NCBI GenBank assembly: GCA_002419145.1
Contig: DIFN01000035.1
Location: 1 to 57,933 of the forward strand
DNA from: Mageeibacillus sp. UBA5747
GTDB taxonomy: Bacteria; Bacillota; Clostridia; Saccharofermentanales; UBA5734
DNA length: 57,933 nt
Reading direction: 5' to 3'
Below the pieces are notes generated by a model. It saw only the letters and a program-made list of their open reading frames with translations. It made no database searches and was not told where the DNA came from. Shown in pieces: positions 32,434 through 57,895 of the stretch. The stretch's first letter is position 1. Each line of letters starts with the position of its first letter. A program made the position numbers and the translations under genes.

Positions 32434-32518
32434 AACCGGTAACTGGCTGCCATGGAATTGCTTCTTTAGGCCCTAAGCTTTGCGTAACAGGTTTTCACCT
32501 GCTCTGCCTTGATCGGTT
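32434..32518 (-). ncRNA. c-di-GMP-I (GEMM) riboswitch aptamer
   Basis: AACCGAUCAA-GGCAGA-GCAGGU-GAAA-ACCUGU-U-ACGCAAAGCUUAGGGCCUAA...CAUGGCAGCCAGUUAC-CGGUU. P1 AACCG/CGGUU, GAAA tetraloop and CCUAA..AUGG receptor are present, as are the G20 (32508), A47 (32481) and C92 (32439) equivalents in Vc2 numbering. Confidence 0.95.
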
Positions 32519-50178: not shown

Positions 50179-50937
50179 TCAAACCATGGATTTAATCAGC
50201 ACTTTGGTATAGTCATGCTGCGGATGGTTCAAGACCTGTCTGGTTGCACCGTTCTCCACCAGGATGCCATCTTGCATGACATACGTCCGGTCGCAGAAAC
50301 CACTGACCAGAGCCAGGTCATGGGAAATAAACAGAAACGACATGTCGTGTTTCTGGCGCAACTTGCTGAGCAACTCCATGATCTGAGCCTGGACGGATAC
50401 ATCCAGCGCACTGGTGGCCTCATCACAGATGAGTAGTTTCGGCTGGGCAGCGATGGCACGGGCAATTGCAGCCCGCTGACACTCCCCGCCACTGACACCA
50501 TGCGGTTTAGCCGCGAAAAACGAGGCGGAGAGGCCTACTTCGCCAAGCAGCTTCTCAGCTTGTGCCCTGCGCTTGGATCTGGGGACCCCTGCCGCTTTGA
50601 GTGTTTCCAGAATACTCGCTCCCAAGGTCAGCCTGGGATCAAAGGATGACCTTGGGTCCTGGAAGATCATTTTCAGATTGGCATAGGCCCGACGCAAGGC
50701 TTGACCTTTTTTTTGCGAAATGTCTTCGCCGCACAGGATAACCTGGCCGCTGTCCAGAAAATCGAGGCGCGCAATCAGGCGAGCCAAGGTCGATTTGCCG
50801 CAGCCTGATTCGCCAACAAGACCAACCGTCTCTCTGGCTCCAACGGTCAAGCTGACATCGCGCACGGCCTCAATCGCCTTGCCGCCTGCCCGGTACCTTT
50901 TGCTCACCCCTCTGAGTTGCAGGATATCACTGGTCAT
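50179..50937 (-). CDS. Opp/Nik ABC ATPase (OppF/NikE-like)
   Basis: GESGCGKST, IFQDPRSSFDP, VSGGECQRAAIA, LICDEATSALDVSVQ, SHD. Confidence 0.93.
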   Translation of the reverse strand: MTSDILQLRGVSKRYRAGGKAIEAVRDVSLTVGARETVGLVGESGCGKSTLARLIARLDFLDSGQVILCGEDISQKKGQALRRAYANLKMIFQDPRSSFDPRLTLGASILETLKAAGVPRSKRRAQAEKLLGEVGLSASFFAAKPHGVSGGECQRAAIARAIAAQPKLLICDEATSALDVSVQAQIMELLSKLRQKHDMSFLFISHDLALVSGFCDRTYVMQDGILVENGATRQVLNHPQHDYTKVLIKSMV

Positions 50938-51787
50938 GTCGTACCTCAACTTCGAATTGTTCTGGTCCGAAACATCCAGAGCCGCAGCGTGCTGCATGAC
51001 AGGTCCGTTCGAACTTGGGCACAGCCGCCAGGAGCGACTGTGTGTACGGATGAGAGGGTGAACCAAGCACGTTGTCCCGGGCACCGTATTCCACAATTTT
51101 CCCCCCGACCATCACCACAACGGTATCTGCCAATTGGTTTACTACACTCATGTTGTGGGTGACGACCAGAATGCTGGTACCAAACTGAGCGCGCATTTTT
51201 TTTAATTCAGCGACAATTTGGGCTTGGACTGTCACATCCAGGGCGCTGGTTGGTTCATCGGCAAGCAAAACAGCCGGTTCCAGTGCCATTGCCAGCGCAA
51301 TAGCCACCCTCTGGTTCATGCCGCCGGACAACTGTACCGGACAGCTCCTGAGGATGCGCTCTGGGTCAGCCAGATCGAGACAGGATAGCAGACGATGGGC
51401 CTTTTCTGCCGCCTGGCGGCGACTGATGGGGCCATGAGCCCGCAACGTTTCAAAAAATTGTACACCAATTTTTCTGATCGGGTTCAGGGATGCTCCAGGT
51501 TCCTGGAAAACCATTCCGATCCCTTTGCCACGAACACGGCGCAGAGCCTCCCCCTGCAGCGCGCACAAATCCTGGCCGGCAAACAGGACCTCGCCCCGGG
51601 TGATTTCAACTTTGCCCGGCAGGCGCAAGATCGTCTGCAGCAGCGTTGATTTGCCACTGCCGGATTCACCGATCACACACATGATTTCCCGCTTCTGCAA
51701 GCTTATAGACACGTCTTGCAGAACCTCCTTACCGCAGGGATACTGCACAAAAAGATGCTGGATATCTAAAAGACTGGTTTGATCCAT
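50927..51787 (-). CDS. Opp/Nik ABC ATPase (OppD/NikD-like)
   Basis: GESGSGKST, VFQEPGASLNP, LSGGMNQRVAIA, LADEPTSALDV, HPYTQSLL. Confidence 0.93.
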   Translation of the reverse strand: MDQTSLLDIQHLFVQYPCGKEVLQDVSISLQKREIMCVIGESGSGKSTLLQTILRLPGKVEITRGEVLFAGQDLCALQGEALRRVRGKGIGMVFQEPGASLNPIRKIGVQFFETLRAHGPISRRQAAEKAHRLLSCLDLADPERILRSCPVQLSGGMNQRVAIALAMALEPAVLLADEPTSALDVTVQAQIVAELKKMRAQFGTSILVVTHNMSVVNQLADTVVVMVGGKIVEYGARDNVLGSPSHPYTQSLLAAVPKFERTCHAARCGSGCFGPEQFEVEVRHDQ

Positions 51788-51817
51788 GGGGTGCCTCTGT
51801 CCGTTCAACCGCCGGCT

Positions 51818-53407
51818 CTATTCCAAGGCCGTTCTGGCTGTAATCTGATAATAATCAACTGGACTCTGCTTGATGCCTGTCACTCCTTTTTTTGTCACCA
51901 TGAACATATTGAGATGGAACAGGTAGCTGTAGGCACAGTCGCTGGTCACGATTTGCTGGATCTCGGTGGCCAGGTCGGCTCGCTTGTCCCTGTCAAACTC
52001 GAGTGACAACTCATGAAGCAGTGAATCCACTTGGGGGTTGCTGTAATTGCCATAATTGCCCCCATTGCCAGTGCCAGTGGTATAGCTCAGGTACGACAGA
52101 GGATCGCCGGTAGGGGTGGTGACATAGGCATAGGCACAGATATCGAAATCACCGGCTTTCAAGACGGTGTCGATGCTCTCGAACTGTTCATAAGTGGCAG
52201 CGATTCCAATCTCCTGCAGCGCAGACTGAAGCGCCTGAGCGGACTGGGGCAGGCCAGTCCGGCCATAAGTGACGATTCTCAGAGATACTTCTTTGCCATC
52301 CTTTGCGATGAAACCATCACCGTCTTCATCCCTGTAGCCGCTTTCGGCTAGCAAGGTCCGGGCACCTTCCGGATTATAATCCGGCACGTCAGTCATTTGG
52401 CTGTCATCGCCATACCTCAAAGCCGAGGGGAAAGCCGATTTGGTTGCAGTTCCGGCACCGTTGAGCAGGACTGAGCCGTAGCTCTCCTTGTCAACAGCCA
52501 TGCAGATAGCCCGCCGGAAGTTCTCGTCCGCCATGAAGGTGCGTTCCAGATTGAAGTACAGCATGTAGACCCGGGTCGTGGCCGCCTGACTGACAACGAA
52601 CGAATCATCAGGGCCAAATAAATCGAGTGTATCGTAGGACAATCCATAAGCCGCGTCGATTTCACCATTTTGCATCGCCAGAGCCAGGGTATCGACATCT
52701 GAAATAGCCTTGATGGTGATGCTCTTGCTGGCAGGCGTACCGCCCCAGTAAGCCGCAAAAGGCTCCAGGGTGGCTGATACATCTTCCACGTAGTTTCGCA
52801 CGCGATAAGGTCCTGTACCAACTGGGTATTGGTTGAAATCCACAGTGCCATCATCCGCAGCGGCGTCGATGATGCAGGCAGAGGGATCACACAGGGAATT
52901 GAGCAGGGTTGGATTGGGCTCTGCCGTTGAGATAGCCACAGAAAGGCCAGTGGCTGTAATCGAGGCAATCTTCAGATCAGACGCAGCCCGTTCATTCTTT
53001 GCGATCAGGCGTTCGAGGCTAGCCTTGACCGCCAGGCCATCCATCGCTTTGCCATTGTGGAATTTGACATCGTCGCGCAGCTGGAATGTCCACGTCTTGT
53101 TATCTTCAGACAGCACCACCTCGGTGACAAGAACTGGGACAACCTCCAGCTTGTCATCGAGGTTGAACAACGTTTCGCCGACACCATAGCGGATGGTCCC
53201 CCAGCCGTTGTAGCTGTCAGCCGGGTCCAGTTTCGAGAAATTGTACACCCCAAAGACGAAATCCTGCCGTTCCGAAGAATTCCCGCTTGTCTGAGGCTGG
53301 ATCACAGCACTGGTAGCAGCAGGTTCTGAATGCGCTGTGCTCCCGCAGGCGACCAGCAGACTCAAGGCAAGCCACATGGTAAGAATTGTGAGCGTCGTCT
53401 TTTTCAT
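51818..53407 (-). CDS. Family-5 substrate-binding lipoprotein (NikA/OppA-like)
   Basis: Lipobox LLVAC, GVGETLF, WTFQLRDDVKFHNG, PVGTGPY, NYGNYSNPQVD. Confidence 0.92.
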   Translation of the reverse strand: MKKTTLTILTMWLALSLLVACGSTAHSEPAATSAVIQPQTSGNSSERQDFVFGVYNFSKLDPADSYNGWGTIRYGVGETLFNLDDKLEVVPVLVTEVVLSEDNKTWTFQLRDDVKFHNGKAMDGLAVKASLERLIAKNERAASDLKIASITATGLSVAISTAEPNPTLLNSLCDPSACIIDAAADDGTVDFNQYPVGTGPYRVRNYVEDVSATLEPFAAYWGGTPASKSITIKAISDVDTLALAMQNGEIDAAYGLSYDTLDLFGPDDSFVVSQAATTRVYMLYFNLERTFMADENFRRAICMAVDKESYGSVLLNGAGTATKSAFPSALRYGDDSQMTDVPDYNPEGARTLLAESGYRDEDGDGFIAKDGKEVSLRIVTYGRTGLPQSAQALQSALQEIGIAATYEQFESIDTVLKAGDFDICAYAYVTTPTGDPLSYLSYTTGTGNGGNYGNYSNPQVDSLLHELSLEFDRDKRADLATEIQQIVTSDCAYSYLFHLNMFMVTKKGVTGIKQSPVDYYQITARTALE

Positions 53408-54264
53408 AGATTTCGTTTCCTTTTCGTTTTCTGAAAAAAATTGTGGGAATCATGCGGGTCAAGGGCATCCCGCACACTGTCACCGAGGAGATTGAACAGG
53501 ATGGAAGTCAAAAGGATAGCCAAGCCGGGATAAAGCACGATCCAAGGATGTTGCTGCATCAGGCCCCGTCCATCCGCGATCATGCTCCCCCACTCAGCCA
53601 GCGGTGGCTGTGGGCCGAGCCCCAGGAAGGAAAGGCCAGCCAAGGAGAGGATCGTCCCGCCGATGCTCAGCGAAGCGGTGACGACAATAGGGCGCAGCGC
53701 ATTCGGCAGGATATGCAGGAATAAGATACTCACCGTGGTTTGGCCATTCAGTTTGGCTGCATGGACGAAATTTTTTTCTTTCAGGGTCAGCACCTGGCCG
53801 CGCATGAGCCGTGCATAGGGTGGCCAACCAGTGGCCGCGAGCGCGATCACAGCATTGTTCAGGCCTTTGCCCAGCAACCCGGCCACTGCCAGAGCCAGCA
53901 CCATGCCAGGAAAAGCCAGAAAAATATCCACAATGCGCATCAAAATCGAATCCAGCTTGCCGCCCCAATAGCCGCAAGCGATCCCGACCGCGCTGCCAGC
54001 CATCAAAGTCAGGCCAACAATCACGAGGGCAGAAAAAACGGACACGGGAGCCGCAGCCAGAACTCTGGAGAACACACAGCGCCCCAGCCAGTCCGTGCCC
54101 CATGGATATGCCTCATTGGGCGCCTGCTTTGCATCAGCCAGATTGACATGGTTCGGGTCGTTGGGCATGAACAGCGGGGCCAGGATGCTCAAAATTAAAA
54201 AAATAACGGTCAAAGCCAGCAGAACGGCAAGCTGAATCCGGGTTTTGTTTGTAGATCGATTCAT
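53404..54264 (-). CDS. ABC permease (NikC/OppC-like)
   Basis: YPWGTDWLGRCVFSRV, FVHAAKLNG, HILPN, LSFLGLGPQPPLAEWGSM, FNLLGDSVRDALDP. Confidence 0.93.
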   Translation of the reverse strand: MNRSTNKTRIQLAVLLALTVIFLILSILAPLFMPNDPNHVNLADAKQAPNEAYPWGTDWLGRCVFSRVLAAAPVSVFSALVIVGLTLMAGSAVGIACGYWGGKLDSILMRIVDIFLAFPGMVLALAVAGLLGKGLNNAVIALAATGWPPYARLMRGQVLTLKEKNFVHAAKLNGQTTVSILFLHILPNALRPIVVTASLSIGGTILSLAGLSFLGLGPQPPLAEWGSMIADGRGLMQQHPWIVLYPGLAILLTSILFNLLGDSVRDALDPHDSHNFFQKTKRKRNL

Positions 54265-54265
54265 G

Positions 54266-55234
54266 TCAGTTCGCCTCTTCGCCTTGCCGTAAGCGCGGAT
54301 CAAGCAGGTGGCAGGACAGATCTACCAGGAGATTGATCAGGACGTAGATCAGTGCCATCCAGACAACAAACGCCTGGATCATTGGGTAATCCCGCTTCAG
54401 AATGGCATCCATGACCAGAAAGCCCATCCCGCGCCAGACGAAAATCATTTCTACAGCTGCAGTCCCGCCCAAAAGCGAGCCAACCGACAAGGACATCCAA
54501 GTAATGATGGTCATCAAGGCATTGCGCAGGACATCTCGGACCAGGACTGCCCCCGGTTTGATGCCGCGAGAAAGGGCACCATCCACATAGCTCTGCCCCA
54601 GCTGCTCCAGAATCGCCGCCCGCACCTGGCGGATGTGTTTTCCCGTCATGGGAATCGCCAGAGCCAAAGTCGGGAGGATAAGTCCTTTGGCTGTGTTGGC
54701 TGCGAGCACCGGTAGCCAGCGCCATTTCAGCGCAACCACGTACAGCAGGAGCAGCGAGACAAAAAAGCTCGGCATGGAATGGCCGAGGAAACTTAGCAGG
54801 CGGATCAAATAGTCTGAGAACCGGTTTTGCCGCACGGCAGTCAGGATGCCAAGCGGCACAGACAGGACCATCGTCACGATCATCGAAGTCAGTGTAAGGA
54901 GCAGTGTCCTGGGCAGAGCGGCCTGCAAAGCCTTGGCTACAGACTGTCCATCGACCAGAGACTGACCCATGTCACCGCGGCAGAAATTGCCCAGCCATGA
55001 AACATACTGCACGAGAAAGGGCCGGTTTAGGCCGGCCTTCTGTTTCAGGGCCAGAACAACCTCTTCAGACACTGGAATGCCCTGCGCCTGCAAGAGCATT
55101 TCTACCGGATCGGACGGCGACAGGTACATCAGCCCGTAAGTCAGAAAGGTCACACCCAGCAGCACTACAACCAGTGAGACCAGTCGTCTGACTATAAAGT
55201 GCAGGATTGGTTCTTGGCAAATCCGCTTTTTCAT
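54266..55234 (-). CDS. ABC permease (NikB/OppB-like)
   Basis: GLNRPFLVQYVSWL..GDMGQS, EQLGQSYVDGALSRG, IFVWRGMG, RDYPMIQ, NLLVDL..LDPRL. Confidence 0.93.
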   Translation of the reverse strand: MKKRICQEPILHFIVRRLVSLVVVLLGVTFLTYGLMYLSPSDPVEMLLQAQGIPVSEEVVLALKQKAGLNRPFLVQYVSWLGNFCRGDMGQSLVDGQSVAKALQAALPRTLLLTLTSMIVTMVLSVPLGILTAVRQNRFSDYLIRLLSFLGHSMPSFFVSLLLLYVVALKWRWLPVLAANTAKGLILPTLALAIPMTGKHIRQVRAAILEQLGQSYVDGALSRGIKPGAVLVRDVLRNALMTIITWMSLSVGSLLGGTAAVEMIFVWRGMGFLVMDAILKRDYPMIQAFVVWMALIYVLINLLVDLSCHLLDPRLRQGEEAN

Positions 55235-55253: not shown

Positions 55254-55379
55254 TCATTTGACAGCCCGGATCATGAACATCGGGGTAGCCCCATAAAAGA
55301 TTTTTTCCTTGTCATCCCACAGATCTGCAATGATCCGGTCGTAATGGTCGGAGGATTGAGTCCAGACGTCTTCAGCCAT
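55254..55379 (-). pseudogene. 41-aa ORF resembling the fused N- and C-termini of a class I methyltransferase (internal deletion remnant) or a small protein
   Basis: GAGGA RBS, then MAEDVWTQSSDHYDRIIADLWDDKEKIFYGATPMFMIRAVK; overlaps the upstream methyltransferase stop and ends 19 nt before the permease start. Confidence 0.55.
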
Positions 55380-56148
55380 CTGTGTCCTCAATCCTTTCGG
55401 AAAGCCACCTTTCTTCGGCAGGCTTTTCCACACCCAGAGCAAAATCCGTGATCAAACTCCTTTGCTGGCCGCTTTGCCGTTCGATAAAGCTTTTCCTTAG
55501 CACTTGAACCTCTAAATGATCCACATCTTGGCTCAGGAACCAATCGATGTCCCATTTCGGTCTGAGCACGCGGGATAGCGGCAAGTCCCGGGCAATTTCA
55601 TTCATTGGGGTCGGATCAACGCCGTAACACGCAGAATGTCTGGACAAGGCGTCCATTCCCTTGGCTGCCTGATAGTCCTCGTCATATTCGTGCAGATAAT
55701 GGTTACCATCCACGATCAGAATCCGGCCGCCAGGTCGCAGGACACGGAGCCATTCCCAGTAAGCCTGTTCTGGTTGTTCCAAATTCCAGACCAGATTGCG
55801 CGAGACAAGGTAATCAAAACTGTCATTTGCAAAAGACAAGCTCTGAGCATCACCCTGCAGGGTCGCAACCGCCACGCCAGCCTCATGGAAATGCTGCTTG
55901 GCATGCTCAAGCATGCCCTGCGAATAATCCATAGCCGTCACCTGATGGCCAGCCTGAGCCAGGAGAATTGAAAAAAAGCCCGGTCCACAACCAATGTCGA
56001 GGCATCTGAGGGATTTCCCAGCTGGAGCTTGGTTTCGCAACAGCCTTTGGAAAAAATCGCGTTCCTGTCCAGACAGCTGTTCCTGGATGGTTTTGGCATA
56101 TCCGTGGGCCCGTCTGTCCCAATAATGGGCGATTTGATCCAGATACAT
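55372..56148 (-). CDS. Class I SAM-dependent methyltransferase
   Basis: Motif I CLDIGCGPGFFS, MDYSQGML, QGDAQSLSF..SFDYLVSRNLVWNL, LRVLRPGG. Confidence 0.94.
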   Translation of the reverse strand: MYLDQIAHYWDRRAHGYAKTIQEQLSGQERDFFQRLLRNQAPAGKSLRCLDIGCGPGFFSILLAQAGHQVTAMDYSQGMLEHAKQHFHEAGVAVATLQGDAQSLSFANDSFDYLVSRNLVWNLEQPEQAYWEWLRVLRPGGRILIVDGNHYLHEYDEDYQAAKGMDALSRHSACYGVDPTPMNEIARDLPLSRVLRPKWDIDWFLSQDVDHLEVQVLRKSFIERQSGQQRSLITDFALGVEKPAEERWLSERIEDTDG

Positions 56149-56166
56149 CGTTTACCTCGCTGACAC

Positions 56167-56206
56167 AAAAAAACTACCTGGCTTGTCTTTCTGACAATCC
56201 AAGTAG
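56167..56206 (-). terminator. Intrinsic terminator inside the methyltransferase leader
   Basis: CUACUUGG-A-UUGUC-AGAAA-GACAA-G-CCAGGUAG followed by U7, ending 18 nt before the ATG. Confidence 0.85.
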
Positions 56207-56317
56207 CCTGCATGACTACAGTTAGTCGCTCCCTGTTACAAGTACACAAAACTAGAACACATTTTTAACTTTGACAGCTACAACCATCGTGCCCTGCCTT
56301 CTGGCAGGACTGAACTG

Positions 56318-56346
56318 ATTGTATTAAAATGCTGGTGCAGCGTCAA
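56318..56346 (-). promoter_or_regulatory. Sigma-A promoter of the methyltransferase/ABC operon
   Basis: TTGACG(56346-56341)-N17-TACAAT(56323-56318). Confidence 0.75.
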
Positions 56347-56475
56347 TCCGAATCTGGTCAACGGTATGAATCCTGGCTATCCTGGATCATTCTCAAAGAT
56401 TACCCGAAATTCAGGATCGTCTCTTTCACGAGACATTCTTCGTTAACTTTTCAACACACAACCATTATTCAGTGC

Positions 56476-57895
56476 CTACATTTTCATACTCGCCAAATAC
56501 TCGAACATCATTCCGCCATCAGCGGAAATAGACTGAGCAAACGCTTTTACAGCCAAGGGCGACGCTTCTCTGTCAAAAACAAACTCCATTTTGGTGTTAT
56601 CTTGATCGAACGAGGCAACACCCGTTTGGCTGTCATAATTTAGTTCTATAGCTGAATCTTCATACCCGACACGGTAAAAGGTTGCTTTTGCTCCATTCAC
56701 TTTAATCACAAAAGCAAACGGCTTCGGCTCCTGTGTCTCCAGAATATTTCCGTCAGCATCCAAGCTTGACACTTGTGACGTACCCTCATACGTTCCGCTC
56801 ACATCAACAGCTGCGTCGGAATCGTTTTCCTCGGTTGTCTGAGCATCATCGGCATTCTGACCTTGAGAAGTGTCGGTCACCCCCGAAATTGTCACTGCCA
56901 TTTGAGAAACCAGCGCATCAAGTATTGCCATCGAATCCACAGGGTCAATCTCATAACCACTTAATAGTTTGGCAATCGATTTGTTGTTTCCAGGTGCAGA
57001 AAAAACCGCTGCCTTCAACACCGCTTCTAGCGAAGCTACGACTTGTCCTGCGGTCTCCATGACCTGAGCGCTGATCGTTTTACCGTTCTTCTCATGGACC
57101 ACTTTTATACCAAGAATCTTTCCCTTGTAAAACAGGTCTGCCAGTGAGTCACCAATATATGAGAGCTGTTCACCGGTTTTTTCCGTCACGGATCCCAATT
57201 TTGCAGGCTCGAAGGTAAGAAGGCCAGTCACAGCAGTTACTGGGGCCAGCTTATCCTTAACATCGTTTAATCCTACCGTTACCTGATGATTTTCTCCCAG
57301 AATGATGGTACTGCCCGTGGTAGCAACATCCACTATGCAGTCAGCGCCGCCTACAACGACAACACCTGCCTCACCCAGTGTTGAGACACTTGTAGATAGT
57401 GCTGACAAGCTGACCCCACCGCTGACAATCGTTGTGGTTACAAACAGCCCCTCTTTACTGGTTGTCTTAATTCCTTGCAGGTAGTTTATTTTCTCTGTCC
57501 AGGCATTGACAACAGCTTCCGCTTCCTCGAGTTCCGCCGCGTCATGGATGATTTTTTGTGCCAAGGCCATCTGTGCGCAGACTGTCTTCGTATCAGTCCC
57601 CAGTTGCTCTGCGAGTTGCTTGTATTTCTGCGCGCCCTTGATCGCATCAAATTGTTTTGTGAGGCTCTCCGCCCAAGTCTGGGGGGTCAAGTTTCCTTTC
57701 ACTCCCGGTTGCAAGTGTCATCGTGGAAAAGCCACCCGGCTTTGTCTCAAGGGTCATCAAGGTTGAACCAGATTGTTTCAGAACAACCGTCTGCTTCACC
57801 GAAGGAGCATCAAGCGCTGTTAATGCTTGATCTGAAACTTGCACCGCACCTAGAGCCAGTAAATTTGCTGTTTCCCAGACTTGATTGATTTCCAT
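56476..57895 (-). pseudogene. Hypothetical protein split by an apparent frameshift at a C6 run
   Basis: ORFs 57647-57895 and 56476-57714 overlap out of frame. Removing one C from the run at 57681-57686 fuses them into 472 aa (..ERKLD|PQTWAES..). Lower GC than the rest of the window. Confidence 0.6.

Follow-up and report, generated by a model that had tools for sequence, protein, structure and literature searches.

The stretch of DNA analysed here (the window) is the 57,933-nt contig DIFN01000035.1 of Mageeibacillus sp. UBA5747 (assembly GCA_002419145.1), and the element in question is the leader that precedes a methyltransferase-nikBCADE operon near its right-hand end (56149-56346, minus strand). 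We find that this leader is a real, selected attenuator of an uncatalogued kind. Our reading, to which we give a probability of about 0.5, is that it works as a conditional transcription attenuator of the operon, in which a small hairpin clamped by a factor competes with an intrinsic terminator under a signal of nickel or cobalt limitation, and that it is a diverged relative of a group of leaders with ACGAA or AAGAA loops.

The leader begins at a sigma-A-type promoter, which matches the consensus at 10 of 12 positions and whose hexamers are both unchanged across all five orthologs; transcription is predicted to start near 56311. About 7 nt separate the promoter from hairpin P1, which is followed by hairpin P2, a spacer of ~49 nt, hairpin B, the terminator with its U7 tract and the ATG of the methyltransferase gene. 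Every leader feature lies on the minus strand, as follows.

56346-56341 (TTGACG) and 56323-56318 (TACAAT), minus strand: sigma-A-type promoter with a 17-nt spacer, from a consensus scan.
56310-56291, minus strand: P1, a 5'-terminal 8-bp hairpin, GUCCUGCC-AGAA-GGCAGGGC, with its loop closed by C-G; -14.1 kcal/mol.
56288-56273, minus strand: P2, a 6-bp hairpin, GAUGGU-UGUA-GCUGUC; -2.7 kcal/mol.
56224-56272, minus strand: variable spacer.
56219-56203, minus strand: hairpin B, 6 bp, GUAGUC-AUGCA-GGCUAC; -5.4 kcal/mol.
56208-56174, minus strand: intrinsic terminator, lower stem GGCUACUUGG/CCAGGUAG, upper stem UUGUC-AGAAA-GACAA; -16.1 kcal/mol.
56173-56167, minus strand: U7 tract, ending 18 nt ahead of the ATG (56148).
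56158-56155 (GAGG) and 56148-56146 (ATG), minus strand: ribosome-binding site and start codon of the methyltransferase gene, as read from the sequence.

A first-pass annotation of this DNA had proposed the TTGACG-N17-TACAAT promoter, the 5' hairpin with an AGAA loop at 56291-56310 and a strong terminator with U7 ending 18 nt before the ATG. All three were confirmed, and with them the picture of a promoter-defined leader of ~160 nt with a strong terminator just ahead of the operon start codon. The same annotation had raised the possibility that transcription starts downstream of the hairpin, from a weak promoter TTGTCA-N15-TAGTTT that overlaps it; this candidate was rejected since its -10 is not conserved in the ortholog alignment. 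The minimum free energy (MFE) of the whole leader is -56.3 kcal/mol (z = -2.9), and none of 200 shuffled sequences folded as well. The terminator was missed by a simple terminator scanner, owing to its internal 1x1 loop. As the U-tract and the ATG are just 18 nt apart, there is no space for a second promoter after the terminator, and the six operon genes therefore depend on read-through.

Orthologous leaders, whose comparison for conserved structure the annotation had suggested, were collected by DNA, protein-guided and metagenome searches. Five distinct leaders were obtained (loci are numbered L): that of the window (identical in L025), L004, L007 (variant L035), L027 (variant L033) and L026. 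All five precede the methyltransferase-nik operon and fall within one genus-level clade. P1, P2 and hairpin B are kept in them, with pairwise identities of 0.91 for P1, 0.89 for P2 and 0.87 for hairpin B plus the terminator 5' arm, i.e. 87-91% against 64% at four-fold degenerate sites of the flanking methyltransferase genes, our neutral reference (82% identical overall). The spacer, at 0.62, equals the neutral level. These values point to purifying selection at the sequence level on P1, P2 and the block formed by hairpin B and the terminator 5' arm. The substitutions in the P1 5' arm are U/C changes facing G, apart from a single C.A mismatch in L007. P2 retains all six pairs in 7/7 sequences; its sole variable stem position is again C/U facing G, and a U/A change is located in the loop, which reads UGAA in L007 and L026. 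Ortholog terminators range from -15 to -29 kcal/mol and end in U5-U7 tracts. No change is seen in their 5' arm, GGCUACUUGG, whereas the 3' arm (75% identity) drifts through G-U/A-U-compatible substitutions, suggesting that the 5' arm has a second function. With a covariance model built from these leaders (R1), no second copy was found in the genome, and the only finds among 54 genomes of the family and 301 of the order were in three congeners; a match in genome G003 was rejected, being a common terminator that follows a sugar isomerase gene.

When all column pairs were scanned systematically, the stem of hairpin B, GUAGUC/GGCUAC, proved invariant in 7/7 sequences, with the substitutions in this block confined to the 5-nt loop (AUGCA, GUGCA and, in L026, ACGAA). 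Its 3' arm GGCUAC (56208-56203) is identical to the first six bases of the terminator 5' arm, making the two folds mutually exclusive. Hairpin B is the best-conserved competitor of the terminator and is part of the MFE structure of the nascent transcript in 5/7 sequences; it would act as the antiterminator. The first-pass annotation had likewise expected a mutually exclusive antiterminator, and one exists, but the conserved one is this local hairpin at 56219-56203 and not the pairing then proposed. That pairing, GUAGCUGU (56281-56274) with GCAGGCUAC (56211-56203), can form in the window but meets an uncompensated U-to-A mismatch in two lineages, L007 and L026, at a position within the loop of the conserved P2, and was rejected. 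A small hairpin from the same source, GACUA-ACUG-UAGUC (56227-56214), can be seen in the window, but no ortholog conserves its 5' arm, and it was set aside as window-specific. The hairpin CUGUA/UGCAG suggested by RNAalifold is also broken in orthologs and was rejected.

The spacer itself holds a pyrimidine-rich near-copy of the P1 5' arm, GUUUUGU (56252-56246), which is able to pair with the P1 3' arm (56291-56297). In L007, GG has become AA in the P1 3' arm, and the spacer offers it a fully complementary GCUUUGCC, giving a 7-bp alternative pairing (GCAAAGC/GCUUUGC); no other compensatory change in the leader involves both sides. The DNA runs gave only one strain polymorphism, a U to C change at 56249 (run X5), and it strengthens the same spacer/P1 3'-arm pairing.

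The terminator is ~11 kcal/mol more stable than hairpin B, with which it shares GGCUAC, and this argues for a factor-dependent attenuator, in which hairpin B would need a factor to hold it. In the mechanism that we propose, the transcript from the sigma-A promoter would begin with 20 nt that fold as P1, with P2 and the spacer emerging next. By default, the terminator would displace hairpin B and transcription would end after ~145 nt. A trans-acting factor would clamp hairpin B, probably along with the look-alike hairpins P1 and P2. With hairpin B held, only the upper terminator stem could form, 5 nt from the U-tract, and the polymerase would read through into the importer genes; in intrinsic terminators, a stem set 5 nt off the U-tract should abolish termination. 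The signal would most likely be nickel (or cobalt) limitation. P1 may serve as a co-recognition hairpin and also as a 5' stabiliser of the mRNA. Two to four mini-hairpins with similar loops are more typical of protein-read attenuators, and the leader is read more probably by an RNA-binding protein than by a small molecule.

The leader resembles a group of uncatalogued leaders of nickel and cobalt uptake genes, which we call canonical. Their layout comprises a promoter, hairpin A, a spacer and hairpin B overlapping the terminator, with loops of the form C-ACGAA/AAGAA-G. The following examples are relevant here.

L106, Desulfosarcina: canonical leader before DUF3842 and CooT genes.
L157: canonical leader before an FmdE-like gene and an S-adenosylmethionine (SAM) methyltransferase gene.
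L159: canonical leader before NikDE-like ATPases.
L161: canonical leader before an SBP_bac_5 lipoprotein.
L203, Caloramator: canonical leader.
L248, Thermodesulfovibrio: canonical leader before a TonB receptor.
L309-L312: among the verified examples of ACGAA/AAGAA-loop leaders.
L305 (G006:C5:103800-108500), ~590-700: canonical leader of a congener, with AAAACC-ACGAA-GGUUUU, a spacer and UGACCC-ACGAA-GGG inside the terminator.

An ECF-S-like protein gene is also among the cargo of verified canonical leaders. In the congener genome G006, the leader is followed by a NikMN-like gene, DUF3842, FeoA and FeoB, the last of these with an insert rich in His. R2, a covariance model derived from six canonical leaders only, picked up additional members, with AAGAA or ACGAA loops, ahead of FmdE-like plus NikA-like genes and ahead of CbiM/NikM genes; its order-level matches other than G006 were rejected because they lie inside coding sequence. 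Loop A alternates between ACGAA and AAGAA among the canonical leaders, which brings a GAA-ending loop such as the AGAA of P1 within sight of the family. The canonical leaders match no model in Rfam 15, and our literature search found no publication on ACGAA/AAGAA-loop leaders or on nickel attenuators. When GCCACGAAGG pairs were sought by exact pattern, the output was dominated by GC-rich coding sequence and tandem CACGAAGG repeats. The latter occur as CACGAAGG(N)CACGAAG(NN)CACGAAGG at dozens of loci (L181-L257, e.g. L207, L213, L224 and L232), often after a T-run, in Planctomycetota, Acidobacteriota, Chloroflexota, Bacteroidota and others, and are an element distinct from the nickel leaders.

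The window leader shares with the canonical leaders the order of parts, namely a sigma-A promoter, a promoter-proximal, C-G-closed hairpin with a GAA-ending loop, a spacer, a second hairpin that supplies the terminator 5' arm with its 3' half or as a whole, and then a ribosome-binding site. It also shares the stem core GUC...GGC of hairpin B, and the way in which hairpin B and the terminator share bases matches the arrangement in L159, L203 and L248. The cargo is likewise similar: canonical leaders precede importers of the Nik-type ATP-binding cassette (ABC), NikM or TonB kind, in some cases together with a SAM methyltransferase, and the window leader precedes uptake-type genes for nickel or cobalt (NikB/C/A/D/E-like, below the equivalog cut-offs). 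It differs in having an extra hairpin between the two hairpins and in being confined to one genus. The closest link is the ortholog L026, which has GUAGUC-ACGAA-GGCUAC at hairpin B and GAA-ending loops in both P1 and P2, and is the only ortholog with a second C-ACGAA-G hairpin, a feature that the window, with its AUGCA loop, is without. When 85 kb of the window and its orthologs were searched with R2, there were two matches only, both on hairpin B: L026 (15.8 bits, E=0.046, the only significant one) and L033 (13.6 bits, E=0.18). Hairpin B is also the window's best local match to R2, and the window's three loops (AGAA, UGUA and AUGCA) keep in common only the G third from last and the final A. 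Homology of the window leader to the ACGAA/AAGAA family through its orthology with L026 is plausible, and the leader is probably a diverged, genus-restricted offshoot of the GAA-loop nickel-uptake leaders.

As to the identity of the reader, DUF3842 is the best candidate, albeit a weak one, and it may equally be a member of the regulon instead. It is a highly conserved family of ~136-aa proteins; its homologues number over 5000, share 60-65% identity across Clostridia and Bacilli and have an invariant N-terminus V-x-D-G-Q-G-G-G-x-G. DUF3842 is present in 7/7 genomes of the class sample that have a canonical leader, plus G006, compared with 133/399 sampled class genomes overall, and its gene adjoins the leader in G006, G086 and L106. 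In the genome of the window (G000) it is a stand-alone gene (C4:10206-10616, plus strand), and NikM, which was also looked for there, is absent. No solved relative of DUF3842 is detectable by sequence, and a literature search on the family returned nothing relevant. CooT was rejected as the reader, being absent from the window's genus and from all eight leader-bearing Clostridia. We consider it rather unlikely, if attractive, that DUF3842 in a metal- or cofactor-free state clamps two to three mini-hairpins with G-N-A loops and so holds the terminator open, the window leader being a specificity variant read by its own DUF3842 paralogue, and that this constitutes an undescribed RNA-level control of nickel uptake in many anaerobes. 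If so, one genus would contain a cognate pair of RNA and protein variants, canonical in G006 and divergent in this genome. Since the genus also has a canonical copy beside DUF3842, the hypothesis that DUF3842 is the reader is directly testable.

A number of observations weigh against the reading of the leader as a nickel- or cobalt-responsive, factor-dependent member of this family. Against R2, the window leader scores 5.8 bits at hairpin B and 4.2 bits at P1 (E 0.17-0.44 in 701 nt), which is not significant, and no statistical case can be made that the window's own copy belongs to the family. P1 lies next to the promoter and a C-G pair closes its loop, but this loop, AGAA, is one base short of the family pentaloop A(C/A)GAA in all five orthologs, and neither the AUGCA loop of hairpin B nor the UGUA loop of P2 is of the GAA type. 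The window hairpins lie ~80 nt apart versus 8-50 nt in canonical leaders, and a search for a canonical leader in this genome found none at all. Covariation is almost wholly of the wobble type among n=5 distinct sequences, and with five orthologs only the terminator is statistically established among the helices. No RNA-seq run contains the locus, and the direction of regulation and the signal are purely what we infer. As for DUF3842, its co-occurrence with the leader gives a naive hypergeometric p of ~4e-4, involving only four families and hence phylogenetically weak; it was not found in the leader-bearing congener G005 (98% complete), and it is present in two congeners without the operon. Its AlphaFold model is confident (predicted local distance difference test score, pLDDT, 88.6) and has a generic small Rossmann-like fold without RNA-binding relatives; as the structural matches are only generically Rossmann-like, the model is uninformative on RNA binding.

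Other explanations of the leader were weighed against the same evidence. A true riboswitch is unlikely, though it is the alternative that we take most seriously. Here, the ligand of the RNA itself would be Ni2+/Co2+, a chelated metal or a metabolite connected with the methyltransferase, and its binding would shift the balance between hairpin B and the terminator, possibly via loop-loop contacts as in guanidine-II. The sequence conservation of P1, P2 and B is above structural need; the canonical relatives have two identical pentaloops containing a self-complementary CG, the palindrome UGCA in the loop of hairpin B could pair with the UGUA of P2, and the lack of an Rfam match would make this a new class. 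However, the leader has no conserved multi-helix junction or pocket-like core, its middle 47 nt evolve neutrally, and the loops differ between orthologs (AUGCA, GUGCA, ACGAA) with no matching changes elsewhere. There is a single copy per genome, in one genus only, and hairpins stabilised by metal would turn an uptake operon on with metal, which is the wrong direction unless the logic is inverted. That the leader is unregulated, P1 being a mere 5' stabiliser and the terminator a leaky, constitutive brake keeping basal expression of the operon low, appears improbable. P1 does begin at the predicted +1, like 5' stabilisers, condition-dependent read-through is without proof, and the methyltransferase is already a deletion derivative, hinting at relaxed selection on the locus. 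Yet a plain terminator needs neither an invariant 5' arm beside a drifting 3' arm nor an invariant hairpin B stem, an intact six-gene importer would be left almost without expression by a -16 to -29 kcal/mol stem and U5-U7 directly ahead of the sole start codon, and the layout recurs before nickel-uptake genes elsewhere.

We regard as more improbable still that P1 acts at the DNA level, its perfect inverted repeat CTGCC-AGAA-GGCAG (+4 to +17) being a repressor operator and the terminator an independent element. The core palindrome is invariant in all orthologs, and more distant operons are evidently DNA-controlled, through a C5-6/G4-6 inverted repeat abutting the -35. On the other hand, the outer three pairs of P1 are kept only as RNA pairs (U.G) and not as a DNA palindrome, the C-AGAA-G loop is similar to those of the RNA hairpins in canonical leaders, and no regulator gene is conserved beside the operon at five loci. 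A ribosome-mediated attenuator with a leader peptide, encoded by a short open reading frame (ORF) from an AUG within P2 (56287-56285), is very hard to sustain. Although AUG followed by GCU/GUU-GUA-GCU-GUC is conserved and all orthologs have ORFs of 6-16 codons, both length and sequence diverge after residue 5, one change (V to E) is non-synonymous, the putative Shine-Dalgarno sequence is sequestered within P1 at a distance of just 4 nt from the AUG, and the stop codons have no fixed relation to hairpin B or the terminator. This candidate was rejected, as the upstream ORFs are not conserved beyond the residues that overlap P2.

Returning to the factor-dependent attenuator, its predicted cargo is the NikBCADE-like operon, which is present in 4/8 genomes of the genus and in no other member of the family.

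55372-56148, minus strand: class I SAM-dependent methyltransferase, 258 aa (Pfam Methyltransf_11/25).
50179-55234, minus strand: ABC importer genes for NikB, NikC, a NikA-like binding protein, NikD and a NikE-like protein (Pfam, NCBIfam).

The best NCBIfam matches of the importer genes are Opp2B/NikB, NikC, Opp5A_nikA, NikD/CntF and NikE, all under the equivalog cut-offs. Using the 500-aa protein of L004 in a tblastn search, we found that the window methyltransferase is a deletion derivative of the 500-aa double-methyltransferase of its relatives and has lost the second domain; the last 28 codons of the ancestral gene survive at ~55257-55340 (minus strand, 79% identical), in the 138-nt gap before nikB. 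Upstream of the leader's promoter lies an ORF of 412 aa (56476-57714, minus strand) that belongs to no Pfam or NCBIfam family and is not kept beside the operon at other loci.

Versions of the operon at 40-65% protein identity are without the RNA leader and have instead a C5-6-N0-3-G4-6 inverted repeat at the -35. The sequence is (T)ATCCCCC(C)-N0-3-GGGG(G)CTTG, its G-run leading straight into the -35 hexamer, and it was located at the following sites.

L006, ~225-250: putative operator.
L008, L031 and L032, ~2880-2900: putative operator.
L009, ~2915-2935: putative operator.
L011, ~1215-1235: putative operator.
L028, ~360-380: putative operator.
L030, ~835-855: putative operator.
L036, 2620-2640 and 2895-2915: putative operators.

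At L036, the second copy is divergent and stands before a MatE gene and another double methyltransferase. The C-run/G-run repeat looks like the operator of a metalloregulator of the CsoR/RcnR type or similar. As the leaderless operons carry this repeat, one cargo appears to be under different control devices by lineage, either an RNA leader or a C5-6/G4-6 operator at the -35. Nickel import is controlled by DNA-binding repressors such as NikR. To our knowledge, NiCo is the only nickel-sensing RNA, and it controls efflux. If the window leader and its canonical relatives are true attenuators, they would add an RNA-level layer over nickel uptake in Clostridia and other anaerobes, one that is absent from Rfam and, within the literature searched, from publications. 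The natural loop variants on fixed stems would in that case amount to a built-in mutational series.

The relation to catalogued RNAs was examined with cmscan against the 4227 models of Rfam 15, using gathering scores across the window and E<=10 for 56050-56520. At gathering scores the only match in the whole window lies elsewhere, a full-length c-di-GMP-I riboswitch (RF01051) at 32435-32518 on the minus strand (65.8 bits). At E<=10, there is no minus-strand match in 56050-56520. Families such as cobalamin, SAM-I to VI, NiCo, T-box, yybP-ykoY, Moco, guanidine-II and PyrR are thereby covered. The view of the first-pass annotation that the leader is of an unrecognised class, formed by eye, thus holds at both thresholds. 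Its broader suggestions fared less uniformly. Expression does depend on read-through; there is no sign of a ligand-binding aptamer and no covarying multi-helix junction. A link to nickel is plausible in view of the NikBCADE-like genes and the related leaders, but sensing of SAM is unsupported. The element is undescribed in having no Rfam match, but it is not a stand-alone class, since it resembles the uncatalogued and widespread ACGAA/AAGAA leaders.

Among described systems, the NiCo riboswitch (czcD motif, RF02683) is a four-way-junction aptamer that turns on efflux genes, also in Clostridia. It is comparable as a Ni2+/Co2+-sensing RNA found in Clostridia, but there is no similarity in sequence or structure and no cmscan match, and the leader precedes importer rather than efflux genes. 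Guanidine-II (mini-ykkC, RF01068) has ACGR tetraloops and exerts translational control over guanidine exporters. Like the ACGAA/AAGAA group, it consists of tandem mini-hairpins with near-identical short C-G-closed loops beginning AC-G and has no elaborate aptamer; unlike it, the leader has no Rfam match at E<=10, and its loops are longer and mixed, its control acts through transcription termination and its cargo serves metal uptake. In the PyrR, HutP and BglG/LicT attenuators of Bacillus, a protein bound to a leader hairpin or repeat decides between antiterminator and terminator, which is the principle that we propose. The PyrR site is ARUCCAGAGAGGYU, HutP recognizes UAG triplets and the ribonucleic antiterminator (RAT) is a 29-nt hairpin. 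These recognition sequences differ from those of the leader, the regulons are unrelated to its own, and PyrR promotes rather than prevents termination.

The targets of ANTAR proteins carry hexaloops in which the first base is A and the fourth is G; no ANTAR protein was found here, and no search aimed at one was made. The leader's loops (AGAA, UGUA and AUGCA) have 4-5 nt, with G third from last and A last, and are not hexaloops. The arrangement is nonetheless the same as in the ANTAR-regulated dual-hairpin antiterminators (EutV, NasR and AmiR targets) reportedly described by Ramesh et al. in 2012: at least two small hairpins with similar loops, the last of which overlaps the terminator 5' arm and, being much less stable than the terminator, must be held by a protein.

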